Shown here in pieces: positions 1-11,456 of a stretch of DNA of 11,456 bases. The notes beneath the pieces are model-generated. The model saw only the letters and a list, made by a program, of their open reading frames with translations. It had not been told where the DNA came from and made no database searches. The translations under genes and the position numbers were made by a program. Source of the DNA: a virus (Duplodnaviria; Heunggongvirae; Uroviricota; Caudoviricetes); the IMG/VR virus record IMGVR_UViG_2671180770_000008, positions 1-11,456 of that record; one strand, written 5' to 3'. Position 1 is the first letter of the stretch; each line of letters starts with the position of its first letter.

Positions 1-47
1 TACAGTCCTTTTTTCTCCAGACATTCTGCCACGTGATCATGTAGCAT
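1..47 (-). CDS. 5' end of an unidentified CDS running off the left edge (MLHDHVAECLEKKGL...)
   Basis: ATG at 47..45 preceded by GGAGG (RC of 54..58) with a 6-nt spacer; only 15 codons visible, product not recognisable. Confidence 0.4.
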   Translation of the reverse strand, partial: MLHDHVAECLEKKGL

Positions 48-101
48 AAGTGACCTCCGATTATCTACAGACTGCCATCCTGAATTTACCTTCCCTTAAT
101 G

Positions 102-199
102 AAATAACAATAAAAAACAAACCACACAAAAACAATAAAATAACACACAAAAAAAACTAAATAATAAACAAAAATAATCACCTTATTTTATTATTTTTT
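102..199. repeat. 98-nt G-free A/C-rich low-complexity tract in the AT-rich region upstream of the edge ORF
   Basis: Direct reading: no G on the plus strand from 102 to 199 (aaataacaataaaaaacaaaccacacaaaaac...). Confidence 0.7.
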
Positions 200-281
200 G
201 AGGGGGCAATTACTGAACAAAAAACGCTGACTATATACTCAAAACCAAACAACTATTCTGCCAATCAGGTATCATGGCAAC

Positions 282-303
282 ACACGGAATTACCGTGTTT
301 TTG
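282..303 (+). terminator. Candidate Rho-independent terminator on the plus strand
   Basis: Stem acacgg (282..287) / ccgtgt (293..298), loop aatta, then ttttt (299..303). Confidence 0.4.
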
Positions 304-512
304 CCTTCTCTGCCCATACAATACGGGCATATACTTCATACTCTATTGTAATATTTCTATCCATGCGCCCCACTCCATTTACCTGTAAATAATATTCAAA
401 ATATTTATCACAGAAATCGTTTTTGTCCATGAACTGAGCACACTATAAAGTCCGGAACTGACTCTTTGTTAAATTACCTTAACGTTACCAGTAACACCTT
501 CATAACAAAACA

Positions 513-980
513 TCACGGTATACACTGGGTACGGATATATTCCTGTGCTCCTTCCAGTTGCTTCTGCATTGCCATCAGCCGTTCTCTGAGGATGAAATAA
601 TCCCGTTCAGCGGCTTCTGCCAGTCGGGGACCGGTTGCATTATCCACGCCGGAGGTGATGGGGGCTTTACGCAAGGAGCCTGGACAGTTGGCGTTGATGC
701 GCAGGCGCTTACGACCAGCGGCAACATCAGCACGCAGAGTTTCATTTTCAGCTCTCGCATCGGCTAATTCCCTCGAGTATCTGGCATCAAGTGCAGCGAC
801 ATCACGCTGGCGTACCTGCATATCAGTAATTGTCACGTTCGCCAGCTTCAGCTCACTGGCTTTTTTATCGCGTTGCGCTTTGTAGGTAATGGCGTTATCG
901 CGGTAATGATTCAGCCCCAGACTAAGCACACCACAGGCTACCAGCAGGACAATAATCACCACACACAGAACACGGTTCAT
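513..980 (-). CDS. Rz: Rz i-spanin (inner-membrane spanin subunit)
   Basis: 155 aa; N-terminal TM segment then coiled-coil; strong similarity to lambda Rz as I recall it ([43 protein letters not shown]); ATG at 980 preceded by GAGGGGGA. Confidence 0.93.
575..760 (-). CDS. Rz1: Rz1 o-spanin lipoprotein, embedded in the +1 frame of Rz
   Basis: 61 aa; lipobox LVVSAC, proline-rich [26 protein letters not shown] closely matching lambda Rz1; entirely nested inside Rz. Confidence 0.9.
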
Positions 981-987
981 ATCCCCC

Positions 988-1119
988 TCACCCCACCAGC
1001 CATGACAAAGTTAAGACGCGCCAGGCAGTGGAAAAGCAAATAGCAACCAGCATTAGTGAAAATGAAATGCCGACGATTACACAGAGGATCTTCGCCAGCG
1101 TTATGAGCTTGTCTGACAT
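988..1119 (-). CDS. 43-aa small hydrophobic protein ([43 protein letters not shown]), unknown function
   Basis: ATG at 1119 preceded by AGAGGA plus 6-nt spacer; stop TGA 990..988 lies 7 nt before the Rz start; one predicted TM helix. Below the ORF-track size cutoff. Confidence 0.45.
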
Positions 1120-1131
1120 GCTTAATCCTCT

Positions 1132-1314
1132 TCACGATTTCAACGCAATGACCAGTTTTGCCAGCCCATACAGCATCGGAGACACAGCAATACCGACCGC
1201 CACCCACTTAATAGCAAAAGCCAGCGCTCTGCTGACGTCATCAGTTACAGGCGCTTTCAGTTCAAGGCCGTTTTTCATAGTCAATCTCAACAGAATTCGT
1301 TTATACTTTCCCAT
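1132..1314 (-). CDS. 60-aa small protein with C-terminal TM helix (MGKYKRILLRLTMKNGLELKAPVTDDVSRALAFAIKWVAVGIAVSPMLYGLAKLVIALKS), unknown function
   Basis: Internal ATG of track ORF 1132..1392; the longer N-terminal extension reads through a terminator hairpin and is rejected; AGGGAG-like RBS upstream; stop 12 nt before the next RBS. Confidence 0.45.
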   Translation of the reverse strand: MGKYKRILLRLTMKNGLELKAPVTDDVSRALAFAIKWVAVGIAVSPMLYGLAKLVIALKS

Positions 1315-1351
1315 GTTCTCCCTTGCCTTACTCAAGGTCAGAAACACAAAA

Positions 1352-1380
1352 CCCCGTTTGCGGCCAACAAACGGGGTTTT
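1352..1380. terminator. Bidirectional intrinsic terminator
   Basis: Perfect 9-bp inverted repeat ccccgtttg (1352..1360) / caaacgggg (1368..1376), 7-nt loop, A-tract on the left and T-tract on the right. Confidence 0.7.
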
Positions 1381-1469
1381 ACTTTTATTCACTTAGTTTT
1401 TGCCAGTTCGCAGGATTTCGTGTTATCCGCCCGCGTTGGCCAACGTCATTTTTCAGCAAAATATTCTGC

Positions 1470-1860
1470 TTATCTGTCAATTCCCCAGCACGCCAGTGCA
1501 CTTTCCTGGTCTCGCCGGGATACCTGGCCGTAGCAATTATTTGAGCGGATACGGCAGTCTCTGCCACCGTCCTTAATCCACCAGCGAATCGCTTCGCAGG
1601 CACCTTTTCGATCACCTGCATTAATCCGTCTGTAAAACGTAGACGGGAAACACTTACCGGGGCCAATGTTATAAGGACAAAATGACGCGATACCCGCCTT
1701 CTGGGGTTCGGTCAGCGGTACTTTAATATTGCGCTCCACCCACTCCAGCGCCTTATCACGTTCAATGGCGTTACCCACCAATTTCCGGTGCCACAGTAAC
1801 AGTAATCTTATCCGGGTAATTATTTATCCCTTTAACAACCAGTTCGTATTTTTTCTTCAT
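1470..1860 (-). pseudogene. Disrupted endolysin: C-terminal ~100 aa of a GH24 phage lysozyme (RrrQ / Stx-phage R type) joined out of frame to an unrelated 29-codon ORF (MKKKYELVVKGINNYPDKITVTVAPEIGG)
   Basis: Frame 1470..1781 encodes NAIERDKALEWVERNIKVPLTEPQKAGIASFCPYNIGPGK...GACEAIRWWIKDGGRDC...ALACWGIDR, matching the C-terminal half of lambdoid lysozymes; there is no SAR/signal segment or catalytic Glu-Asp-Thr region; the ORF starting at 1860 (good RBS GGGGAGAG) stops at 1773..1771 in a different frame. Confidence 0.7.
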
Positions 1861-1864
1861 CGCT

Positions 1865-2080
1865 TTACTCTCCCCGCGCCGCCTTACGACGGTCCTCTCT
1901 GATTTTGAAATACAGGTTAGTCAGATACGTCAGCAGGCCAAACAGCAGACTCCCCAGCACACCTATCGCCACCCACTGGGACGGAGAGACTTTGTCCAGC
2001 AGCTGCAGTAACCAGTATCCCGTCCCCACCGCTGACGTGGTGTATGACACACCTGTTGTGATTTTTTCCATCTGGTACAT
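1865..2080 (-). CDS. S: Class II holin (S21-type pinholin), 71 aa, with dual-start motif
   Basis: [10 protein letters not shown]...[40 protein letters not shown] closely matches phage 21 S / EssD-EssQ holins; Met1 and Met4 dual start; RBS GGGAGA upstream. Confidence 0.92.
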
Positions 2081-2155
2081 ACCCCGTCTCCCGCAATCCG
2101 GAAGCTCACAACAACAGGAGGGGCATCAGCTCACACCGACAGCCCCTGCGTATGG

Positions 2156-2425
2156 TTACATCATCATTTCGCCGCCAGGCTGAGGCTCACTGCTACCGTC
2201 AGGCTGAGACACAACGCCATCTGAAACAGCACTGTCACCCGCGCCGTCTTCAGGCTCAGGAGCAGCCGGTCCCCCCAGCAGCTCATCCAGAATGGCATCC
2301 ACTTCAGCATCAAGACGCGCCTCAAGATTCTGGCGGAGTTGCTGTTTCAGTGCGCTTCTGACTTCTTCAGAGCGCAGGACGTCCTTCACTGCTTCAGCAG
2401 TGACCAGAGATTTTATTTCTGACAT
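2156..2425 (-). CDS. Hypothetical acidic protein, 89 aa (MSEIKSLVTAEAVKDVLRSEEVRSALKQQ...)
   Basis: Internal ATG of track ORF 2156..2581; the upstream extension overlaps the better-supported 60-aa gene in another frame; weak RBS. Confidence 0.5.
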   Translation of the reverse strand: MSEIKSLVTAEAVKDVLRSEEVRSALKQQLRQNLEARLDAEVDAILDELLGGPAAPEPEDGAGDSAVSDGVVSQPDGSSEPQPGGEMMM

Positions 2426-2462
2426 GGGATTTTCTCGTTGAAAGGTGTTGTTAAGAAAGTTG

Positions 2463-2645
2463 CTACGAAATGAGAGGCTCTTCGGGTTTTGTTCCGGCTG
2501 ACTGGCTGGCGCTGATTTTTTCCGCCGCCGCGGCATCAATCTTTTTGCGTATATAGTTCCGGATAACCTTATACCCGCCACTTACCAGATATAACGTGCA
2601 CACCACCGTGCAGAAATACAATAAAATAAGCTGTACAAATCTCAT
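2463..2645 (-). CDS. Small membrane protein, 60 aa (MRFVQLILLYFCTVVCTLYLVSGG...)
   Basis: ATG at 2645 preceded by GGGAGG; hydrophobic N-terminal helix. Confidence 0.55.
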   Translation of the reverse strand: MRFVQLILLYFCTVVCTLYLVSGGYKVIRNYIRKKIDAAAAEKISASQSAGTKPEEPLIS

Positions 2646-2739
2646 TATCCCTCCCGGTTATTGATATGGTGTTGACATCGTTAATACCTGTTGGTTAAAA
2701 AAGTGTCCTGCATGTTTTGCTTTGGATATAACGACATTT

Positions 2740-2787
2740 GCCGCCGGTTCTGGCTCCTTGTTTTCCCTGCCCCGGCGGCCTTTTTTT
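2740..2787 (+). terminator. Intrinsic terminator on the plus strand (antisense to the late operon)
   Basis: 8-bp GC stem gccgccgg (2740..2747) / ccggcggc (2772..2779) followed by ttttttt (2781..2787). Confidence 0.55.
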
Positions 2788-2792
2788 CCTGC

Positions 2793-4730
2793 TTACGGGT
2801 TATTCACTTCCACTGTTATACTTTCAATCAGCACCGGATATGTCGCACCGCTAGTGATATCGGTCACGCGCAATTTGTCTGCCGTAAACGTGCCGACCGG
2901 TGACTGTGACAGCATGAACGGCGTCCCGTCCTTACCATCAATGACCGGCGTCACCTCAATACTGTTGTTACCGGCAAAACGGAAGCCCAGCGTATGCCAT
3001 TCGTTATCAAATGCGCCGAATGACCCCAGCTTCGTGTTCTGACCAGCATTTCCCTTGTGGTACATCACATTAAGGTCTGTGGCATCGCTCTGTACGTAAA
3101 ACGACGCCAGCAGGTTATGACCGGCATTACCTTCCAGTGTGACGCCCTGAGGCAGTGAAGAAACCGGCCAGTACAGCGCCAGTGCGTACTGATTAGCTGT
3201 CAGTGTGCCATCAACTTTAAAACGACAACTGATAAGCCCGCCCTTCTCCAGCAGGTCTGCGCCATTACCGGCATCATGCTGCATAAACCACGAGGAACTT
3301 CCTGTCTGTTTGGTCCACCTCAGCGCCTTACCTCCTGCAGCACCTGCATCATCAACTACCAATGCACGCCCTCCTTCAGCTCCCCATCCCTGCGGATTCA
3401 GTAAACCACCTGACTCTGTTGCACGGTAATAAAGCAGCGTTGTCACTGATTTCCCGTCCGTTGACGGTGTTGATGGTGTGTCCGGTGACGGCTTCTCATC
3501 CGGCGGCATCACAACCTGTTCCCCACCCACCAGTTCAGCCGTCCGTCCTGCATGGAGAAGAATCGCTGAGGCAAGACGGTCAGAAATAATCCCCCTGCGT
3601 GCCCATGAGCTGAAATGGCTCGCACGGTCTGCTGACGTCCAGTTTGCCGACGTCCGGGAGGCCGCACCGTAATATCCTGATGCCGGAATATCCGGGTCTT
3701 CTTCCGGTTTGTTCGTCGGGACATTTGCTCCGTTCTCATCGGTCATGAACGGCACAAAGTGAATATTCTTTTCCGTTTTGTTTTTGTAACTGCCGTACAC
3801 CGTCTGGTAAGTGGATTCGCTCTTCTGCTTCCAGAAATAAGTTGTGTCTCCACATATCCAGGGAACACCGTCAGCAGAACCACCAGCGCACTGTCCCACC
3901 ATATCTGCAAGGTCCGTACGATATTGTTCCACTACTTCTGTAAAACGGGCTGTGTGATTTGCTGGCGTTCCGTCAAAGTCAAATTCCCCCTGCATCCACA
4001 CCACGGCAAGCAGCACATTTTTCGGGTTCTTTGCCAGCGCGGCTTTTGTACGACCGATGAGATCCTTATACAGCGGCCTGCCCACACCCCAGCGGGTATA
4101 ACTCTCTGAGGCACCGGTCACGTCACTGTATGTTCCATCTGCCCCGGTGGTGAAAGCTGAACCACCACGGCAGCACGGAACCAGAAGAATACCCGCATTC
4201 GCCGGTATAAACGGCAGCAGCTTTTTGGCAATATGCAGCCCGTGCCCCACGGTTCCGTACTGACCTTTCGACAGGTCAGCTTTCGGATGGTTAAGACGGC
4301 TCATGTCCTGTACATCATGCAGACAGTGGTCTGCCGGAATAATGTCGTTATATTTACAGGGAGCGCCATCCGGCGTCACTGTGCTGCGACGAGCCAGTTG
4401 CTTTATACGCGGGTCAGGACGGTCATATGTCTGCGGCAGAGGAAGCCCCTCACCGTAAGCCATGCCGTTCGACTGCCCGGCCAGTGGAATAACGTAGTAA
4501 TAATCTGGCTCCGTGGTGACCACTCCCGGATAGCCACCATCCCCCGTGCCGGGCACAACCACTGGCGTGGTCACATCCCCCTCCGCGGCAATCGCCTGCA
4601 TCAGGGTATAAGGGGTTATGGCCACAGGACTACCAAACGGCTGCCAGCCCTCTTTCAGTTTGTGTGTCAGCTTTTCCGCAAGATCTGACGGCGACGCCGC
4701 CCTGACAACATCATAATGTTTAATCGACAT
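2793..4730 (-). CDS. nanS: NanS-p-type prophage sialate O-acetylesterase, 645 aa
   Basis: Strong RBS GGGAGA; N-terminal MSIKHYDVVRAASPSDLAEKL... segment, esterase-type motif YYVIPLAGQSNGMAYG, size and position (between Q and S) as in the NanS-p proteins of E. coli O157 prophages. Confidence 0.88.
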   Translation of the reverse strand: MSIKHYDVVRAASPSDLAEKLTHKLKEGWQPFGSPVAITPYTLMQAIAAEGDVTTPVVVPGTGDGGYPGVVTTEPDYYYVIPLAGQSNGMAYGEGLPLPQTYDRPDPRIKQLARRSTVTPDGAPCKYNDIIPADHCLHDVQDMSRLNHPKADLSKGQYGTVGHGLHIAKKLLPFIPANAGILLVPCCRGGSAFTTGADGTYSDVTGASESYTRWGVGRPLYKDLIGRTKAALAKNPKNVLLAVVWMQGEFDFDGTPANHTARFTEVVEQYRTDLADMVGQCAGGSADGVPWICGDTTYFWKQKSESTYQTVYGSYKNKTEKNIHFVPFMTDENGANVPTNKPEEDPDIPASGYYGAASRTSANWTSADRASHFSSWARRGIISDRLASAILLHAGRTAELVGGEQVVMPPDEKPSPDTPSTPSTDGKSVTTLLYYRATESGGLLNPQGWGAEGGRALVVDDAGAAGGKALRWTKQTGSSSWFMQHDAGNGADLLEKGGLISCRFKVDGTLTANQYALALYWPVSSLPQGVTLEGNAGHNLLASFYVQSDATDLNVMYHKGNAGQNTKLGSFGAFDNEWHTLGFRFAGNNSIEVTPVIDGKDGTPFMLSQSPVGTFTADKLRVTDITSGATYPVLIESITVEVNNP

Positions 4731-4816
4731 CGAATTTCTCCCGTGTACAGGAACAGAGTTAAAAAGCCGGAACCGGAATCAAATCACAGGATGACCATCT
4801 GCCAGTGGCTGGTCGT

Positions 4817-4843
4817 AAAAAAAAGGCCGCGCCATGCGCAGCC
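4817..4843 (-). terminator. Intrinsic terminator on the minus strand, upstream of nanS-p
   Basis: Minus-strand RNA GGCUGCGCAUGGCGCGGCC (8-bp stem, 3-nt loop) followed by UUUUUUUU (RC of 4817..4824). Confidence 0.7.
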
Positions 4844-5044
4844 GGAAATAAAGGGATAACGATGATAGTTTGAGAAAAACAGAAATAACACTTTTGTGGC
4901 AAAGCATGGTGCCGGGTGCCTCCCGGTGAATTCAGTACCAGCACCTGAATCCGCGATTATCCCATATACCTGGTTGCTGATTGCCCCTCCGCACAGGGGG
5001 ATTCACCATGCAGTAGTATTTTTAATAAACAGTAAACAAAAAAA

Positions 5045-5212
5045 TCAAGCATTATGCAGGCTGTTTCTTTTTATCACCGGCCACAGCAATACCACAATGC
5101 CGCAGACCAGCCCCCCATCCGCCAGCACCGACATGATTCTGCTGGTGAAATCCACCATCACCACCAGAAACAGCAGGAGTGCAGCCACAGCCAGGCGCAG
5201 TTTTACCGTCAC
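5045..5212 (-). CDS. 55-aa small membrane protein (VTVKLRLAVAALLLFLVVMVDFTSRIMSVLADGGLVCGIVVLLWPVIKRNSLHNA), GTG start overlapping the TerB-like stop
   Basis: GTG 5212..5210 overlaps TGA 5211..5209 (GTGA); GGAG 8 nt upstream; two hydrophobic stretches. Below the ORF-track cutoff. Confidence 0.4.
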   Translation of the reverse strand: MTVKLRLAVAALLLFLVVMVDFTSRIMSVLADGGLVCGIVVLLWPVIKRNSLHNA

Positions 5213-5680
5213 AGGTGATTCTCCAGACGAAGCCCCAGAACACCGGCAATCTCTTCCAGCACCTTGCGCTCTTCCGGCTCAATTTCGCCGTCTGCCTCCG
5301 CAATGGCCACCGCCACATCCAGCACATCTTCCGCTTCACGCGTATCGTGTTTCACATCCTCGATCTCACGTAACGCCGCACGACGACCAATTTTAAAGTT
5401 CGTATCCAGCTGACCGATAATGGTTGCGCTAATCGCATTAATTTCTGACGTAAACGCGGACAGCGCTGGCTGATTACGCAGTACCTGTTCGATCTTCGCT
5501 TTCTAGGAAGCCTCACATTCACCATCTGCACAGGCCACCAGGTATGCGGCGTTAATCACCGTCTGTGCCAGATCGCGTTTCTCAAACTTTCCTTTTTCCG
5601 GTTAACGTGACACACCAATAACTCTTGTCGAAAAAGCCAGCAAGCTGAAAGACCGGTATTCACAACCACCAGCGCGTTTA
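5209..5680 (-). pseudogene. TerB-family (tellurite-resistance TerB-like) gene disrupted by an in-frame amber codon and a 5' frameshift
   Basis: Frame 5601..5209 encodes ...EKGKFEKRDLAQTVINAAYLVACADGECEAS*KAKIEQVLRN...DVLDVAVAIAEADGEIEPEERKVLEEIAGVLGLRLENHL with TAG at 5505..5503; the N-terminal part (..GFFDKS..) sits in another frame; no usable start codon. Confidence 0.55.
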
Positions 5681-5704
5681 CTGTACTGGCGTGATTTCAG
5701 TCAT

Positions 5705-5727
5705 AAAAAAACCCGCCTGGCGACGGG
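5705..5727 (-). terminator. tR'-like terminator of the short pR' leader transcript
   Basis: Minus-strand RNA CCCGUCGCCAGGCGGG (6-bp stem, 4-nt loop) followed by UUUUUUU. Confidence 0.75.
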
Positions 5728-5763
5728 TGTAAAAAATCTTCTAACGTCAGGCATAAAACGCCC

Positions 5764-5803
5764 ATCGTTAGGGCAAATTTACCACAGATTCGGGAAAAAT
5801 CAA
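5764..5803 (-). promoter_or_regulatory. pR'-like late promoter with qut / pause element
   Basis: On the minus strand: -35 TTGATT (5803..5798), 16-bp spacer, -10 TAAATT (5781..5776), then TGCCCT AACGAT GGG, closely resembling my recollection of the lambda pR' -10 / pause region (GGGTAAATTTGACTCAACGATGGG); starts directly after the Q stop codon. Confidence 0.7.
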
Positions 5804-5808
5804 CAAAG

Positions 5809-6630
5809 CTATCTGGTCACCTTTTTCAGTTGTTGTTCTGCCCATGCTTCTTCAATATCAAACTGCACCACCAGCGTATCGTAAAAACGTTTAACTGTTT
5901 TTTTCCATGTATCAAGAGATATGGCATCGGTTACATTACATATGGCATTAAATGCCTCCGTTGAAGGTAATCTTTCATAGCCACGACCACCACAACGCTG
6001 GCAGTCTCTGATAACAGGCATACCACGTTTTACCGACTCTTCACGATGAATGGCAACACCGCGCCCACGACAATCTTTACAGGCGGTGGAAACCTCCCCC
6101 TTCCCTCCACACTCCGGACAGGCAACTTTTACCACCTCCCTGACTTTTTTCCATTCCTCCCAGTAAGACGGATACACGCCTTTTGTGCACTTTGCCCACA
6201 CTGGCGGCTTACCATCCGGATACTGGATCTTGTTTGTAAAAACCTCGCTTTCAATAAATTTTTTTCCGTGACAACAGGGGCACTGTTTTTTGCTCGCCGC
6301 GCTACGGGCATAATCTTCAAACGCATACGAAGCCATAATACGCATCACTGCCGGTTTTATTTCTGCCGGGAGTTTTTTTAACGCCGCCACGCGATCACAC
6401 CGACTGAGTGCATATTCTGTCAGCAATTCTGTTGCCCGCTCTCTGTCATTCATACTAATGCCCATTTTCCCAAGGAACGCAGAAAACCCCATCTCAGCCC
6501 AATTCTGTGTCATGCCCTGCGCGGCCATCACATCAGTGATACTCAGCGTATCTTTCGACGTTGAGGCCGATGCATCAGTCAGGCCGGGGGATTTTGGGGA
6601 GTAGTATTTCGGTAAATCTTCCAGTTTCAT
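5809..6630 (-). CDS. Late-gene antiterminator Q (Q-like, zinc-binding), 273 aa
   Basis: Immediately upstream of the pR'-like promoter; several CxxC pairs (CPCCHGKK, CPECGGKG, CKDCRGRG, CQRCGGRG); position equivalent to quuQ / quuD. Confidence 0.8.
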   Translation of the reverse strand: MKLEDLPKYYSPKSPGLTDASASTSKDTLSITDVMAAQGMTQNWAEMGFSAFLGKMGISMNDRERATELLTEYALSRCDRVAALKKLPAEIKPAVMRIMASYAFEDYARSAASKKQCPCCHGKKFIESEVFTNKIQYPDGKPPVWAKCTKGVYPSYWEEWKKVREVVKVACPECGGKGEVSTACKDCRGRGVAIHREESVKRGMPVIRDCQRCGGRGYERLPSTEAFNAICNVTDAISLDTWKKTVKRFYDTLVVQFDIEEAWAEQQLKKVTR

Positions 6631-7001
6631 TTTTTGACCTGCCCTCCAAGCATTATGGGGTAAATCTTCACCCCCAGACGTCCACCAGATACTGGCTGAG
6701 CACGAACGATATTGATTTCATCAAACTGCTCATCGTCCATTAGCAACCCCGCATGCGTCAGCGCATCCAGCGGCGCTTTCAGAATATTGTCCAGGTCACG
6801 GCGGCGCTTATCCGGTGGCTCGGCAATAATCTTTATCGCCAGCCTTCCGGACAGGCTTAATTTCAGCCGCTGCTGGCGAACAATAAGCGCCACAGCCCGG
6901 CGATAACGCTCACCGGCTTTTGATACAAAATATGTGCTGCCACGACGTCGCCAGTAGGTGTTCACCGTCGGCGGGTAAAGCAAAACAAACTCTATACGCA
7001 T
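6627..7001 (-). CDS. rusA: RusA-family Holliday-junction resolvase
   Basis: PDKRRRDLDNILKAPLDALTHAGLLMDDEQF and SGGRLGVKI align with E. coli RusA ([40 protein letters not shown]); RBS GAGG; stop overlaps the Q start (ATGA). Confidence 0.92.
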   Translation of the reverse strand: MRIEFVLLYPPTVNTYWRRRGSTYFVSKAGERYRRAVALIVRQQRLKLSLSGRLAIKIIAEPPDKRRRDLDNILKAPLDALTHAGLLMDDEQFDEINIVRAQPVSGGRLGVKIYPIMLGGQVKK

Positions 7002-7013
7002 CAGTAACCTCTT

Positions 7014-8063
7014 TTACCCGAGCACGCCGGTTGCAAAGGCGTGATCAAGAAAACGAAAAATTAAATCAACCTGGGAACCATGCTTTTCTTCGAACGCCAG
7101 CGGATCCGCATGAAGCTCGTTGTGATGCTCCCGACACAGCGGTAGCGTGAAAATATCGTGGGATTTTGTTCCCATTCCGCCCTGACCATGACCAATCAGA
7201 TGATGAGGATCGTCCGCTGGCTTACCACAACACGCACACGGCTGTGTCTTTACCCAGCGTGTGTATTTCTCATTTACCCAGCGGCGACGTTTAGGTCGTT
7301 TCATGAAGGATTCCGGAGACTCCGGATCAACGGCAATGCTGACCACCGTCTTTTCCTGTGGTGGGTTCTGTTGCTGGTGGGTGTGAGACGGTAGCGCAAT
7401 ATTTTTTGTGCGCTGCTTCAGTATGCTGGTGGCGGTCTGTTCTCCCGGTATGATGTCGCTTTCACGGTATACGGAGCGGATTTTTTCCGCACGCAACCCC
7501 AGCGAAAGACGTAATACCGCTTCCGGTAGCGCGTCCGCCACCTGATTGCGGACCGCCCACCAGGATAATTCAGCCAGAGATAATTCACGCTCCTGTGCGC
7601 CATTCATTGCGTGACGGATGATGTCAATCATCCAGGCGGCCAGATTCTGTTGAGCAAGTTGATCCAGTGAATCAGATGTCTGCTCCCGCAGCTGGTTGTC
7701 GCAGTGCCAGCACAACACCATCGCGCCGGTACCGTAACGGTGAATGACGGTTTCGCTGTGATGATAATCACCGTGTAGCCACTGGCAGGATTTCACGTGA
7801 CGTAATAACCAGTCAGACAGTGCACCAGCGCCACCCGCAGCACGGATCACCCGCTCATCGCTGAAAAATGGCAGTAGTGATTTATCTTCCGCCAGCGGCT
7901 GGTGAACGGCAGGTACAACCCCGGACGGCAGAGCTCGCATGCTTTTTGGTTCCGGCTCCACCAGTATTCTGCCGTTATGGAATGCTGACATTGATTCACG
8001 GCCTGGCTTAACGATAACCAGACCGAGTTCCGGTACCAGAACAGGTCGAAGTAATACCCGCAC
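7014..8063 (-). CDS. DUF968-family prophage protein (YdfU-like) with C-terminal HNH-like Cys/His motif
   Basis: 349 aa, position as ydfU in Qin (rem - ydfU - quuQ); motif CACCGKPADDPHHLIGHGQGGMGTKSHDIFTLPLCREHHNELH; GTG start 8063 with GGAGG upstream, overlapping the upstream stop. Confidence 0.65.
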   Translation of the reverse strand: MRVLLRPVLVPELGLVIVKPGRESMSAFHNGRILVEPEPKSMRALPSGVVPAVHQPLAEDKSLLPFFSDERVIRAAGGAGALSDWLLRHVKSCQWLHGDYHHSETVIHRYGTGAMVLCWHCDNQLREQTSDSLDQLAQQNLAAWMIDIIRHAMNGAQERELSLAELSWWAVRNQVADALPEAVLRLSLGLRAEKIRSVYRESDIIPGEQTATSILKQRTKNIALPSHTHQQQNPPQEKTVVSIAVDPESPESFMKRPKRRRWVNEKYTRWVKTQPCACCGKPADDPHHLIGHGQGGMGTKSHDIFTLPLCREHHNELHADPLAFEEKHGSQVDLIFRFLDHAFATGVLG

Positions 8064-8064
8064 A

Positions 8065-8343
8065 TTACCTCCAGATCCGTTGCTGGAATGTGCGGGACGG
8101 ACGCGGTGGCCGTTCGGAGTAAGGGAGCCTGACGGAGATTATCCAGTGACGGTAGTCGAGGCTAAGGGCTTTTTTAACCTCGCATCCGCGCCTGCGGTAA
8201 CACTGAATGAGCCATTCGGCCTGTTCTTCAGTGCATGGGGGATGCTGGTACCAGTCAGATTTGAATGCGTGAAAACACCGTCCGCGCCTGCTGGCAAAGA
8301 CGGCAGAATCATCAGAATTGTATAATTTGGTATCGTGCGCCAT
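8065..8343 (-). CDS. Hypothetical Cys-containing protein, 92 aa, in the position of rem
   Basis: Internal ATG of track ORF 8065..8424 (MAHDTKLYNSDD...); the longer extension would read through the hok terminator. Confidence 0.5.
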   Translation of the reverse strand: MAHDTKLYNSDDSAVFASRRGRCFHAFKSDWYQHPPCTEEQAEWLIQCYRRRGCEVKKALSLDYRHWIISVRLPYSERPPRPSRTFQQRIWR

Positions 8344-8415
8344 CGGTTGTCTCTGCTGGCGCAGCAGGTGCCAGTTGTTCAGGCTGGCGTGCGAATTGTA
8401 AACCAGAATGCCAGG

Positions 8416-8440
8416 AAAAAACAAAACCCGCCGAAGCGGG
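8416..8440 (-). terminator. Intrinsic terminator at the 3' end of the hok mRNA
   Basis: Minus-strand RNA CCCGCUUCGGCGGG (5-bp stem, UUCG loop) followed by UUUUGUUUUUU. Confidence 0.7.
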
Positions 8441-8510
8441 TTAAGTGCGGGTGCGTTGAGGATGCCTGATTCATCAGAGGTGGCGAGGGATTTCTCCCTC
8501 GCCGGGTCTC

Positions 8511-8666
8511 TTACTCCTCAGGTTCGTAAGCTGTGAAGACAGCGACCTCCGTCTGGCCGGTTCGGATTCGTACCTCGCAGAGGTCTTTCCTCGTTACCAG
8601 TGCCGTCACTATGACGGTTAAACAGATGACGATCAGGGCGATTAACATCGCCTTTTGCTGCTTCAT
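8511..8666 (-). CDS. hokD: Hok-family type I toxin (HokD/RelF-like), 51 aa
   Basis: MKQQKAMLIALIVICLTVIVTALVTRKDLCEVRIRTGQTEVAVFTAYEPEE, which I recall as identical or near-identical to E. coli HokD; RBS AAGGAG 9 nt upstream. Confidence 0.9.
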   Translation of the reverse strand: MKQQKAMLIALIVICLTVIVTALVTRKDLCEVRIRTGQTEVAVFTAYEPEE

Positions 8667-8871
8667 AGCCTGCTTCTCCTTGCCTTTCGGCACGTAAGAG
8701 GCTAACCTACATGTGTCTAGCATGAAATTGACCTCAGATTAATGTTAGGCGTCTTGCAGGACGCGTAATGTTAACTGGGGCTTTTCTCTGTCTGCCTTTT
8801 GGTGTTCATGCCTGAGGCAGATAGCCTCAAGCACCCGCAGCAATTCTACTTAACTCTCGCTTTACAGCAAA
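8667..8871 (-). promoter_or_regulatory. hok mRNA promoter and leader: -10 TAGAAT (8848..8843), tac-like hairpin, mok-like upstream reading frame (ATG 8723) in frame with hok
   Basis: Leader UUGAGGCUAUCUGCCUCA... parallels the plasmid R1 hok 5' end; the 5' element (RC of 8825..8840) is complementary to a 3' element at 8445..8461 (fbi-type long-range pairing). Confidence 0.6.
8715..8790 (+). ncRNA. Putative Sok-like antisense RNA (approximate extent)
   Basis: Plus-strand promoter candidate TTGCCT (8680..8685), 17 bp, TAACCT (8703..8708); transcript would be antisense to the mok-like start/RBS; no clean terminator found, 3' end uncertain. Confidence 0.25.
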
Positions 8872-8882
8872 CCGTTTTTACC

Positions 8883-8904
8883 CGATATGGGAATTCCCAT
8901 ATCG
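8883..8904. repeat. 22-bp perfect palindrome CGATATGGGAATTCCCATATCG
   Basis: Direct reading; centred on GAATTC; between the 34-aa ORF stop and the hok promoter -35. Confidence 0.8.
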
Positions 8905-8912
8905 TAATGAAT

Positions 8913-9017
8913 TCAGTTCCCTAGTCGATCCATCAAAAACACAACCAGGCAGTAAACGCCCACAACAGCAACAACAGCCAGCGCACCTTCCATTGCCAGT
9001 GAGATATCATCCGACAT
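8913..9017 (-). CDS. 34-aa small hydrophobic peptide (MSDDISLAMEGALAVVAVVGVYCLVVFLMDRLGN)
   Basis: ATG 9017 preceded by AAAGGAGGG with a 4-nt spacer; single predicted TM helix; verified codon by codon. Below the ORF-track cutoff. Confidence 0.45.
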   Translation of the reverse strand: MSDDISLAMEGALAVVAVVGVYCLVVFLMDRLGN

Positions 9018-9052
9018 ATTCCCTCCTTTGGTGTTAATCCCGGCGAACGTTT

Positions 9053-9136
9053 TTACCCCCACCGACAAATAACATATACTAAAAAAGCGATAGCCATAGC
9101 AACGCCTGTAATTGCAAATGCTTCAGGCCAGTTCAT
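9053..9136 (-). CDS. 27-aa small hydrophobic peptide (MNWPEAFAITGVAMAIAFLVYVICRWG)
   Basis: ATG 9136..9134 overlaps the TGA stop of the upstream DUF551 gene (ATGA); GGAGG 7 nt upstream; single TM helix. Confidence 0.45.
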   Translation of the reverse strand: MNWPEAFAITGVAMAIAFLVYVICRWG

Positions 9137-9717
9137 TGGCGCACCTCCTGCGGCGGTTCTGGTAGCGGCATCCAGTCGGTTACATTGCGGCTCTGTGTTT
9201 CGAAAAATTCATCACCATCACGGACTACATCAAAAAACTCACCGTCTCGATATTGCGCATAAAGAACGAATGCGCCATCACATAAAATAATTACGTGCTG
9301 ACCGTCATCCGGCATTCGCTCACTACAGCTTATCCAACCATCCAGAGTTACCGGATAGTTGGTTGACGTTTCCGAGATTTCCCGAAAATTATTGGTTGAC
9401 GAACCCTTCTTTTCCCGAAAGTTTCCAGCCTGAAGCATGGCGGCGCTGTCTGGCGGGGCAGCATATAGCGGCACGTATATTTCCGGTTCCTTATCAGCAC
9501 CGGGTTGCTCTTCCAGTGAGAATGTCTTTCCGGTAAATCGATTCATATAAAGCACGGGCTCTGCTTCCAGCGAAGCCTGAGCAACAAGGGCCAGTGCTAA
9601 ATCCAACTCAATTGCCTCGAGAGAATTTTTGAATGCTGTCTGTTTTACTGCAAATTTCATCGCCTTTACATTTTCACTAACATGACTGATTAACTGCTCT
9701 TTTGTAAAAGTGGTCAT
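9133..9717 (-). CDS. DUF551-domain phage protein, 194 aa from ATG 9717 (alternative GTG start at 9777)
   Basis: C-terminal DUF551-like signature WISCSERMPDDGQHVIIL...DWMPLPEPP; AGGAG RBS 6 nt before ATG 9717. Confidence 0.7.
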   Translation of the reverse strand: MTTFTKEQLISHVSENVKAMKFAVKQTAFKNSLEAIELDLALALVAQASLEAEPVLYMNRFTGKTFSLEEQPGADKEPEIYVPLYAAPPDSAAMLQAGNFREKKGSSTNNFREISETSTNYPVTLDGWISCSERMPDDGQHVIILCDGAFVLYAQYRDGEFFDVVRDGDEFFETQSRNVTDWMPLPEPPQEVRQ

Positions 9718-9773
9718 CTCATTCTCCTTTGATGCGAATGCCAGCGACAATTGAAGCCTGATAGCTAATTCAC

Positions 9774-10169
9774 TCACAATACCGCCTCCTGAAAATTGCC
9801 CTGATAGAACGCCAGTACACGCAGCATAACTTCACTCTTCCGGCACTCGCCACAGATTATGTTCTGTTGTCTGTCGTAGCGGTGTATTTCTCCGTCTGGT
9901 AACTTTCGAATCAATGTCTGGTCGGTTGTTTTCTCCGCTGCCTTACGCCATACGCGATACACCTGTTCTGATGTAAAAACACCGTATTTACCGGGCATGT
10001 ATAAATTGCCGCAAGCCAGTACATCCACAAGGCAACGTCTGACTGAATGCCAGCCTGCTCCCGTCGCTCTCTCCAGTTGTGATATCGTCATGCGTTCATT
10101 TTTGCGTACCAGCCCGATAATTCGGGCCTTCAGTTCTTCACGCTGTTCGTGTGTAAAAGGTTTCGCCAT
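9774..10169 (-). CDS. Hypothetical protein, 131 aa, with predicted N-terminal HTH-like segment
   Basis: ATG 10169 with GGAGG at a 5-nt spacer; RMTISQLERATGAGWHSVRRCLVDVL resembles an HTH; function not recognised. Confidence 0.7.
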   Translation of the reverse strand: MAKPFTHEQREELKARIIGLVRKNERMTISQLERATGAGWHSVRRCLVDVLACGNLYMPGKYGVFTSEQVYRVWRKAAEKTTDQTLIRKLPDGEIHRYDRQQNIICGECRKSEVMLRVLAFYQGNFQEAVL

Positions 10170-10184
10170 AAGCGCCTCCGGCTA

Positions 10185-10910
10185 TCACTTTTCCGACACA
10201 ATACGACCGGATGAATCGACAATCTGCCGAACAATATCCCAGTGCTTGTTCAACTCCCGCAGCGCGGCGCAGACTCGCTCCCACTTCTGAACCTGACCTT
10301 TTGCTCGGCGCAGCTCGCGGTTAGCCACATGCAGCGATGGTAGAATCAGGTCATCTGCTTTCGTTTCAGTGAACGATTGCTGCAACTTCACAATGTCCTC
10401 CACCGCTTCTGTTTTAATTTCTTCCTGTGCAGCCGTTTCCTGGACTGGTAACGCAACACCTGCTGGCTGAGGAAGGGCTTTACCCTCCGTTTCAGCTACG
10501 GATGCAGCTTTCTGCTCTGCCGGTAAATCAACGCCCGGTATGCAGTAACGAAATTTACCATCCTGATTCACGCGAATCAGACGCCCTTTGCTGATTGCCA
10601 TTGCCAGCGATGAATTCGCACGGCGGGAGGTAATTCCGAACATCAATGCCAGCTCATCCGCCGTTTGTGGGCCATGATGTTCAATCGCCTCAGTCAGCAT
10701 TTGCGCTGTCACTTTCGGTACCGGTGACACTGGTTCACTTTCACCAGTCTGAGTCAGCCACCACATCGACCCCTTGTTATCCGCTTCACCACGGCGCTTC
10801 AGTTTCCACAGTTCGTTGACAGCATCTTCGCGGCTGATTCCAAGGCGCGATGCCACTACCTGTGAAGAGGCTTTTTTCAGTGCTTTCAGTGCGTCAAATA
10901 CAGTTTCCAT
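10185..10910 (-). CDS. Hypothetical protein, 241 aa, with two winged-helix-like segments and an acidic linker
   Basis: ATG 10910 (METVFDALK...) preceded by GGAGGA; track ORF begins 6 codons earlier at a TTG; function not recognised. Confidence 0.7.
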
Positions 10911-10931
10911 TAAAACGTCCTCCAACAAAAA

Positions 10932-11456
10932 TTACTTCACAACCCTCTGATTGCTGACATTTGGACGCCAGCTATCCCAGTTAAACGTCACCCATCGACC
11001 ACCGCTCATGGTCATCCGGTCCATAATCCTCTCACCAAGAAGCGTGCTCATTGCGGCATGATTCAGGTTTGTTAACATCCCGACACTGCACAGTGATGCT
11101 GTCCGGCGATCAATTATCTGGTGTAATACCACCTGCTCGTTTTTCGTCTCCCGCTGAACGCCTATTTCATCCAGGACCAGCAAATCAACCCCGCAAAGCT
11201 CCTGTAAAAATTTTTCCCCGGATTTGCCGTTGTCGTAGCTGTCATGCAACACGCTCATGACATCAGACACGGTGACGATAATCACGCTGCGCCCCTTCGC
11301 CATCAGCCGGTTACCCATCGCCGCTGCAAGGTGATTTTTCCCGGTGCCGGTTTTACCGCTGAACACAAAATTCGTGCACCCGGTCATCAGTTCGTCAGCT
11401 ATGGATTTGGCCTGGCTCAGCGCGTATTTTTGCCCGTCGTTCTGCACCTGATAATT
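10932..11456 (-). CDS. DnaC-like helicase loader / replication protein (IstB-type AAA+), C-terminal part; N-terminus beyond the window
   Basis: Walker A GKTGTGKNHLA, Walker B LLVLDEIG, and tail GERIMDRM...WVTFNWDSWR align with E. coli DnaC (GPVGTGKTHLA, LLVIDEIG, GERVMDRM...WVIFNWDSYR). Confidence 0.9.
   Translation of the reverse strand, partial: NYQVQNDGQKYALSQAKSIADELMTGCTNFVFSGKTGTGKNHLAAAMGNRLMAKGRSVIIVTVSDVMSVLHDSYDNGKSGEKFLQELCGVDLLVLDEIGVQRETKNEQVVLHQIIDRRTASLCSVGMLTNLNHAAMSTLLGERIMDRMTMSGGRWVTFNWDSWRPNVSNQRVVK

Follow-up and report, generated by a model that had tools for sequence, protein, structure and literature searches.

Several kinds of very small membrane protein have been described in Escherichia coli and its phages. 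Hok, a toxin, is translated through coupling to mok, a reading frame that overlaps it upstream. AcrZ, MgtS, MgrB, PmrR, and CydX are single-helix E. coli regulators of 20–50 residues that bind a larger membrane protein. The "moron" and superinfection-exclusion proteins are non-essential small membrane proteins, encoded in the accessory regions of temperate phages and expressed from the prophage. We describe here two small open reading frames (ORFs), ORF27 and ORF34, found just upstream of a hok/sok locus in a viral DNA of 11,456 nucleotides (nt) (IMG/VR record IMGVR_UViG_2671180770_000008, positions 1 to 11,456; we refer to this whole stretch as the window). An earlier note on this DNA had proposed a tandem pair of hydrophobic peptides, of 27 and 34 residues, beside the hok locus. 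Both ORFs are real, lie on the minus strand, and neighbor hok as described. We favor, with a probability of roughly 60%, the reading that they are two independent small genes for single-pass inner-membrane micro-proteins, placed at the end of the prophage early operon and upstream of hok/sok.

A comparison with the known systems revealed both likenesses and differences. The neighboring Hok/Gef protein (hokD/hokW type) is, as we predict for ORF27 and ORF34, a small hydrophobic inner-membrane peptide, and comes from the same prophage region. However, Hok is roughly twice as long as either peptide and has a periplasmic Cys-containing tail that both of them lack; an Rfam scan and folding revealed neither a Sok-like RNA nor a long folded leader; and ORF34, unlike Hok, is freely translated in growing cells. 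The style of AcrZ, MgtS, MgrB, PmrR, and CydX fits the invariant G-x3-A face and conserved juxtamembrane motifs of ORF27, although these regulators share no sequence similarity with either ORF and are chromosomal core genes, whereas both ORFs belong to phages. The heavy occupancy of ORF34 by ribosomes in an uninduced lysogen is in keeping with the moron class. On the other hand, matches of both ORFs to the PHROGs class "moron, auxiliary metabolic gene and host takeover" were inconsistent and non-significant, and ORF27, unlike this class of temperate-phage proteins, is also found in lytic Vequintavirinae. A further counterpart, XECs145 (ECs_5710, WP_001278454), is the same gene as ORF34, with the same ribosome-binding site, palindrome, and hok neighbor in prophage Sp6 of strain Sakai.

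ORF27 is coupled to an Ea22-like gene

ORF27 (9053–9136, minus strand; ATG at 9136–9134, TAA stop at 9055–9053) is a micro-protein gene of 27 codons, encoding the single-helix peptide MNWPEAFAITGVAMAIAFLVYVICRWG. Its start shares the four nucleotides ATGA with the TGA stop of the upstream DUF551 gene (9135–9133), and a GGAGG Shine–Dalgarno block is located 7 nt 5' of the ATG (9144–9148, minus strand), inside the upstream coding sequence; both features had been recognized in the earlier note. The single helix per peptide predicted there was also recovered, as one hydrophobic stretch of 17–18 residues in each (Hessa free energy of membrane insertion, ΔG), which in ORF27 spans residues 7–24 (summed ΔG −1.8). 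The charged ends attributed to the peptides were seen in a limited form: ORF27 has just one charge per end (E5 and R25), and the N terminus of ORF34 is acidic. With E5 at the N terminus and R25 at the C terminus, the positive-inside rule predicts an N-out/C-in orientation for ORF27.

The upstream gene (9133–9777, minus strand) is a mosaic, Ea22-like gene whose C-terminal domain is DUF551 (Pfam PF04448, E = 1e-20); the NCBI Prokaryotic Genome Annotation Pipeline (PGAP) calls the identical gene a DUF551 domain-containing protein of 585 bp. Across homologous loci, the ATGA overlap was invariant in all 35 unique E. coli-type ORF27 contexts, and the spacing of the Shine–Dalgarno block (GGAGG, GAAGG, or GAGG-like) was kept in every upstream context. 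These contexts comprise at least five classes of upstream C terminus, ending before the stop in ...PEPPQEV[RNS]Q, ...LISVEDVLR, ...IEQKVNQ, ...KKKGMNQ, or ...ATQGENQ. The downstream neighbors vary too, and can be the cassette that carries ORF34, hok directly, an intrinsic terminator, or other genes.

Most of the upstream partners tested have an N-terminal region in common and differ in their C termini. Residues 3–89 of the window partner, for example, are 56% identical to the partner at related locus L005, and residues 1–48 of the L004 partner are 83% identical to that of L096; L0139 of phage 933W is an exception to this shared N terminus at the BLAST level. The partners form a mosaic "Ead/Ea22-like" set, with DUF551 as one among several alternative C-terminal domains. 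Their final codons (...V-N-Q, the stop, and the GGAGG block), which bear the translation-initiation region of ORF27, travel with ORF27.

ORF27 belongs to a widespread family under purifying selection

A tblastn search of a phage collection returned ∼95–100 full-length ORF27 homologs with 55%–100% identity. Their hosts include the Shiga toxin (Stx) phages 933W, VT2-Sakai, BP-4795, and Min27, other lambdoid phages, and the lytic Vequintavirinae Av-05 and TH18. At all phage loci inspected, the homolog begins exactly on the upstream stop and is unannotated; in 933W it is located between L0139 and sokW/hokW. Scans of IMG/VR and GTDB yielded many further copies. A 104-nt probe for the commoner ORF27 subtype had 2919 matches, including 163 on plasmids, in 1621 out of 5426 complete genomes of E. 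coli. For ORF27, the share of these genomes is at least 30%.

Natural variation indicates that the encoded peptide is under selection. Among 27 unique 81-nt variants of ORF27, the numbers of variable sites at the first, second, and third codon positions were 11, 9, and 24, with the third position varying in 24 out of 27 codons. The ratio of non-synonymous to synonymous polymorphism (pN/pS) was 0.26 in frame versus 1.07 and 1.96 in the shifted frames, and one variant had an in-frame deletion of 6 nt. The conservation check that the earlier note had put forward was positive: in hundreds of related loci both frames are open and show an excess of synonymous changes, which is more than chance would give.

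Weak tblastn matches in Klebsiella prophages turned out to be 22-codon ORFs (e.g., MDWPTAFCIVGCAFAIAWLFRS). In most contexts they start on a TAATG or TGATG overlap with the upstream stop, and the upstream gene often has the DUF551-type ending ...PPQEVK. This Klebsiella-type clade had 54 loci in IMG/VR with 20 unique 22-codon sequences, in which the variable sites per codon position were 7, 6, and 15, and pN/pS was 0.20 in frame versus 1.69 and 1.32 out of frame. The two clades are bridged by intermediates of 23–28 residues. In their joint alignment, M1, P4, A6, G11, and A15 were invariant, and W3 and F7 were present in at least 90% of sequences. The family can be summarized by the signature M-x-W-P-x-A-F-x3-G-x3-A in a peptide of 22–28 residues, to which ORF27 of the window conforms in both sequence and length. 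The conserved part is composed of the N-terminal M-x-W-P-x-A-F and of a G-x3-A (small-xxx-small) face on the N-terminal half of the helix; the C-terminal end is variable.

We found no established family for either peptide, in agreement with the earlier note, which could name none. Peptides of the ORF27 family had no consistent match in Pfam, NCBIfam, PHROGs, or PADLOC, and a PDB sequence search with one ORF27 variant also gave nothing consistent; ORF34 had no consistent match in the same five resources. Library scans of both peptides and several variants returned only inconsistent, sub-threshold matches of a transmembrane-like kind. Searching for the peptide strings in the full-text literature and in the supplements of four papers identified nothing but XECs145, and the ea22 paper makes no mention of a small ORF downstream. 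ORF27 was without annotation in all RefSeq and phage records inspected, and an exact look-up recovered only a handful of GenBank records that call it; ORF34 is called by PGAP and RefSeq. We conclude that ORF27 represents a conserved and widespread phage micro-protein family that we found in none of the family libraries or papers searched, and that ORF34 had previously been annotated as a hypothetical gene and reported as translated.

We made several side observations concerning ORF27 records. NCBI names some contig-edge fragments in the ORF27 frame (e.g., GGESMTWPEAF...; P0028, P0033, and P0034) "DUF551 domain-containing protein, partial," a mislabel owing to the overlap with the true DUF551 frame, and one 90% cluster mixes 121-residue DUF551 proteins with the 27-residue ORF27 peptide. 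A sequence of the E. coli-phage type, spanning ORF27 and hok, is present within a record named Actinobacillus phage vB_Apl-pPE4 (L005, PP818812.1), and the same sequence type was seen on contigs of very small size that are attributed to Segatella copri, Acinetobacter idrijaensis, and Xanthomonas pisi (L093–L095). These occurrences are likely contamination or mis-assignment.

ORF34 is a translated gene of one prophage lineage

ORF34 (8913–9017, minus strand; ATG at 9017–9015, TGA stop at 8915–8913) has 34 codons and encodes MSDDISLAMEGALAVVAVVGVYCLVVFLMDRLGN, a peptide with an acidic N terminus and one hydrophobic helix (residues 13–29, summed ΔG −2.7). It is preceded by the Shine–Dalgarno sequence AAAGGAGGG (9021–9029, minus strand). 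The spacing of 4 nt reported in the earlier note is correct when measured from the GGAGG core; the full sequence ends 3 nt from the ATG. The leader is 35 nt long, and both the Shine–Dalgarno sequence and the AUG are unpaired in the centroid fold. PGAP and RefSeq call ORF34 a hypothetical protein (WP_001278454.1 and WP_001278450.1; ECs_5710 in Sakai prophage Sp6), and WP_001278454.1 is annotated at the same coordinates in a locus that is 100% identical. ECs_5710 of Sakai differs from ORF34 of the window by a single residue (V16I), and the XECs145 peptide contains the Sakai allele.

Ribosome profiling (RIBOseq) in Sakai, a type of evidence suggested in the earlier note, shows that ORF34 is translated: It is the core of XECs145, a novel translated ORF of E. 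coli O157:H7 Sakai (Hücker et al. 2017; PMC5597208). In lysogeny broth (LB), XECs145 had 79.1 reads per kilobase per million mapped reads (RPKM) of RNA and 346.1 RPKM of footprints, with a ribosome coverage value (RCV) of 4.35 and a coverage of 0.99; in brain heart infusion (BHI), RNA was 121.3 and footprints 150.1 RPKM (RCV 1.14); and under cold/osmotic stress, the RCV was 0.01 (PMC5597208). The study reports no Shine–Dalgarno sequence for XECs145 because it took the longest ORF, with a start 20 codons further upstream (PMC5597208). The strong ribosome-binding site precedes the internal ATG used by PGAP and in the earlier note, and not the published start. The levels of XECs145 are above those of the upstream ECs1517 (79/346 vs. 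25/49 RPKM for RNA/footprints), a hint of independent ORF34 expression in lysogens that is confounded by multi-copy read mapping.

The 2049 places at which ORF34 was detected, with 92%–100% identity, are spread over 732 out of 5426 genomes of E. coli. No relatives were recovered by tblastn of 50,697 phage records or by a scan of GTDB species representatives, and a phmmer search of 1.84 billion representative proteins returned near-identical copies only. Natural variants of ORF34 included 11 synonymous and 10 non-synonymous changes in frame, versus ratios of 2:19 and 3:18 in the other frames (binomial p = 0.01–0.04 for the synonymous excess, depending on transition bias). Mutations in the start and stop codons keep these functional (ATG to GTG, TGA to TAA). 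ORF34 is probably a functional but young gene, for which the evidence is thinner than for ORF27.

A 175-bp cassette separates ORF27 from hok

The ORF34 leader, ORF34 itself, and a palindrome together make up a 175-bp indel, bordered by two copies of the 11-bp direct repeat GGGTAAAAACG (100% identical, spacing 175 in a repeat search). The left copy (9048–9058, minus strand) covers the last Gly codon and stop of ORF27 plus 5 nt beyond, and the right copy (8873–8883, minus strand) marks the end of the indel and the start of the hok-locus homology. In loci of the other ORF27 subtype, the ORF27 stop is followed directly by the hok region without a cassette (...TGGGGATAAAAACGGTTTGCGGG...), and this junction holds one copy of the repeat; 933W is among the otherwise collinear ORF27–hok loci that lack the segment. 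In 80 out of 80 IMG/VR loci, the cassette was flanked by ORF27 of the "...VYVICRWG" subtype on one side and by hok on the other. Exact repeats at the borders of an indel are the signature of a single insertion or of a repeat-mediated deletion.

These data do not support the "tandem pair" of the earlier note, since ORF27 is widespread without ORF34, ORF34 is a lineage-restricted indel unit, and the two have no detectable homology. Paralogy by tandem duplication was considered and rejected (hhalign probability of 2.5%; Smith–Waterman scores against shuffles with p = 0.03–0.1 and inconsistent alignments; no DNA similarity). A mobile element (insertion sequence or miniature inverted-repeat transposable element) as the source of the cassette is not supported either. 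Its direct repeats resemble target-site duplications, but there are no terminal inverted repeats, the internal palindrome being the only inverted repeat recovered in the repeat search, and it occurs in one genomic context.

The perfect 22-bp palindrome CGATATGGGAA/TTCCCATATCG (8883–8904) is present as the earlier note had stated; it begins 8 nt 3' of the ORF34 stop and therefore just outside the interval 8913–9136 under which it had been listed. In 11.5 kb, ∼0.003 palindromes of this kind (11+11, zero spacer) would be expected. The minus-strand RNA of the palindrome found here forms a stem of 9 bp that is capped by an AAUU loop, and a 61-nt segment containing the palindrome folds with −16.7 kcal/mol (z = −2.4). 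Natural variants have altered central bases, one shortened arm, or a G-U pair that is formed on the minus strand only. The palindrome adjoins the start of the hok-locus homology on its upstream side. An intrinsic (rho-independent) terminator was tried as an explanation and rejected, as the next nucleotides are GGGUAAAAACGG, without a U-tract, and a terminator scan listed it on neither strand. Instead, the palindrome may form a hairpin that stabilizes or insulates the upstream transcript at its 3' end.

Another locus (L008; NZ_CP027331.1, ∼1500–1540) has the palindrome in a 24-bp version upstream of hokD; its left flank is unrelated and consists of a paa adhesin gene with a frameshift. Similarity between this locus and the window begins within the last codons of ORF34, and the locus seems to derive from the cassette arrangement by truncation. 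An imperfect direct repeat of 15 nt (13/15; 8798–8812 and 9027–9041) is shared, probably by chance, by the ORF34 leader (GGGATTAACACCAAA, minus strand) and the 5' part of the hok mRNA (GGCATGAACACCAAA).

Proposed mode of action and significance

We propose that ribosomes ending the Ea22-like/DUF551 gene would re-initiate at the overlapping ORF27 start (ATGA, or TGATG/TAATG in the sister clade), using the Shine–Dalgarno block in the last codons of the partner gene. By such termination–reinitiation, the ORF27 peptide would be made in step with its partner. The G11-x3-A15 face could then pack on a second transmembrane helix, whether from the peptide itself or from a membrane protein of the host or phage, and this packing would modulate the partner protein and not kill the cell. 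ORF34, which lies on the 175-bp cassette with its own strong ribosome-binding site and is translated in growing lysogens, would be a younger gene of E. coli prophages. The palindrome would most likely be an RNA hairpin that stabilizes or ends the transcript before the hok promoter. We infer that both peptides are small inner-membrane modulators.

Ea22 of lambda and Stx phages has been reported to favor lysogeny. A bolder scenario, which we consider speculative and rather unlikely as a whole, is that Ea22-like/DUF551 proteins have the M-x-W-P-x-A-F micro-protein as their obligate partner in the membrane, where its G-x3-A face would tie the variable soluble domain of these proteins to a membrane target of the host. 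The micro-protein would then be an overlooked exo-xis/accessory component in 933W and many enterobacterial phages, with ORF34 recently born and captured beside it.

Whichever action it has, ORF27 is a concrete, conserved phage gene that was missed because of its size, and 933W, the reference Stx phage, is no exception. Its constant coupling to Ea22-like/DUF551 genes opens to testing an accessory region of Stx phages that is poorly understood and that influences the choice between lysis and lysogeny. ORF34, as a well-translated gene of one prophage lineage, could be a model of recent gene birth. Adding one small hidden Markov model (HMM) to annotation pipelines could recover thousands of ORF27-family genes.

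Alternative explanations

Several observations weigh against two functional micro-protein genes. Among 80 cassette-bearing loci, ORF27 had A17D, within the helix, in 25, a stop at W26 in 10, and a frameshift (1-nt deletion) in one; the ORF27 copy of Sakai Sp6 (L181, 2344–2427) has A17D. Such alleles suggest relaxed constraint on ORF27 and decay in defective prophages of the cassette-bearing lineage. The Sakai RIBOseq study scored ORFs of at least 30 codons only, which places the 27-codon ORF27 outside its scope. The ORF34 sequence occurs four to five times per genome, and its RIBOseq reads were possibly multi-mapped. The conservation of ORF34 partly reflects simple linkage, given that it is always found in one context with 92%–100% identity, and its selection test rests on 21 variants. 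Finally, having no U-tract, the palindrome is not a canonical terminator.

One alternative is that ORF34 is a young, translated, but functionless hitch-hiker in the 175-bp insertion and that ORF27 is decaying in largely defective O157-type prophages, leaving a locus without present function. Consistent with this, relatives of ORF34 are limited to near-identical E. coli copies, always in the order ORF27–ORF34–palindrome–hok, about half of the ORF34 variants are non-synonymous, and the damaged ORF27 alleles are common in the cassette lineage. We nonetheless find it doubtful, because synonymous changes are in excess in the ORF34 frame alone (11:10 vs. 2:19 and 3:18), a working start and stop are retained upon mutation, the ribosome-binding site is near-optimal with a high ribosome coverage value, and the window alleles of both ORFs are the intact majority forms. 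We see still less reason to regard one or both peptides as type I toxins like Hok, damaging the membrane and held down in translation by an antisense RNA. The only toxin trait recognized in them is their shape, as short and very hydrophobic single helices, to which can be added the genuine hok/sok locus next door and two weak sigma-70-like matches (9/12) on the opposite strand (8993–9020 and 9052–9080). Promoter-like matches were, however, not enriched (three vs. 1.7 ± 1.2 in shuffles), and zero Rfam families matched 8913–9136. ORF27 is coupled to an ordinary upstream phage gene, and the freedom of its third positions makes a conserved overlapping antisense RNA gene unlikely; moreover, it holds specific end motifs and the G-x3-A face, whereas type I toxins are loosely conserved. 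The short ORF34 leader exposes its Shine–Dalgarno sequence, with no sequestered ribosome-binding site, and ORF34 is well translated in exponentially growing cells (RCV of 4.35 in LB), unlike a silenced toxin. The Hok/Gef HMM (PF01848) matched neither peptide, and in the same scan gave 81.6 bits to the adjacent ORF at 8511–8723. The comparison with type I toxins made in the earlier note finds no support beyond shape; its small-membrane-protein reading is supported.

Two further explanations concern ORF27 alone. It could be a C-terminal membrane anchor of the DUF551/Ea22-like protein, added by programmed ribosomal frameshifting at the overlap of the two frames, as the NCBI labels "DUF551 domain-containing protein, partial" on ORF27-frame fragments (P0028 and P0033) might imply. 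This is very improbable: Every ORF27 homolog has its own ATG and a correctly spaced Shine–Dalgarno block, the 121-residue DUF551 proteins of the same cluster lack the peptide, and the junction nucleotides differ (CGCCAATGA, TTTACGATGA, GAATCAATGA, and GAAGTGATGG), so that there is no conserved slippery site. Least probable of all is that the conservation of ORF27 reflects a DNA or RNA element, such as one for hok regulation or an operon terminator, and not a protein. ORF27 does frequently abut the hok promoter region or a terminator. But substitutions are codon-periodic, with amino acids kept while the DNA diverges to ∼70% identity, and ORF27 is also conserved in loci without a hok downstream (BP-4795, Av-05, 666R9, and the Klebsiella-type prophages). 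The substitution patterns of both ORF27 clades already contradict this explanation.

Genomic context

The window covers the early-right to lysis portion of a lambdoid, Rac-like E. coli prophage, with all relevant genes on the minus strand. The gene order starts with a DnaC/IstB-like ATPase, followed by DUF1627, DUF977, DUF551, ORF27, ORF34, and hok/sok, and proceeds through a hypothetical gene, DUF968, RusA, antiterminator Q, a NanS-type esterase, DUF826, a holin, and Rz. An identical (100%) stretch is present in E. coli strain fS25a, and near relatives are found in E. coli O157:H7, O104:H4, O111, O103, and O145 strains.

The hok/sok/mok type I toxin–antitoxin locus (8511–8872, minus strand), which is a neighbor only, was identified by Pfam HOK_GEF (E = 3e-23) and is annotated as hokD by PGAP. 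The Rfam sok/hok model RF01794 matched 8836–8661 with 113.5 bits. Homology of the hok locus, common to ∼4000 genomes, begins between 8883 and 8849. Just 3' of hok, 8421–8502 (minus strand) had a sub-threshold match to the Rfam model of isrK, an Hfq-binding small RNA (27.7 bits against a gathering score of 50; E = 0.0009), which terminates in a predicted intrinsic terminator at 8442–8425.

Between the holin (1865–2080) and Rz (513–980), an endolysin of ∼170 residues is expected (∼980–1865, minus strand); the open frames there have only 76–103 codons, and the endolysin of this prophage may be disrupted. Zero tRNA genes were found in the 1.1-kb gap from antiterminator Q to the NanS-type esterase (4731–5808). 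At a related locus (L001), a methyltransferase gene and tRNA-Ile/Arg are located between the RusA/DUF1133 genes and the esterase, and in Stx phages the gap between antiterminator Q and the esterase is the position of the toxin genes.

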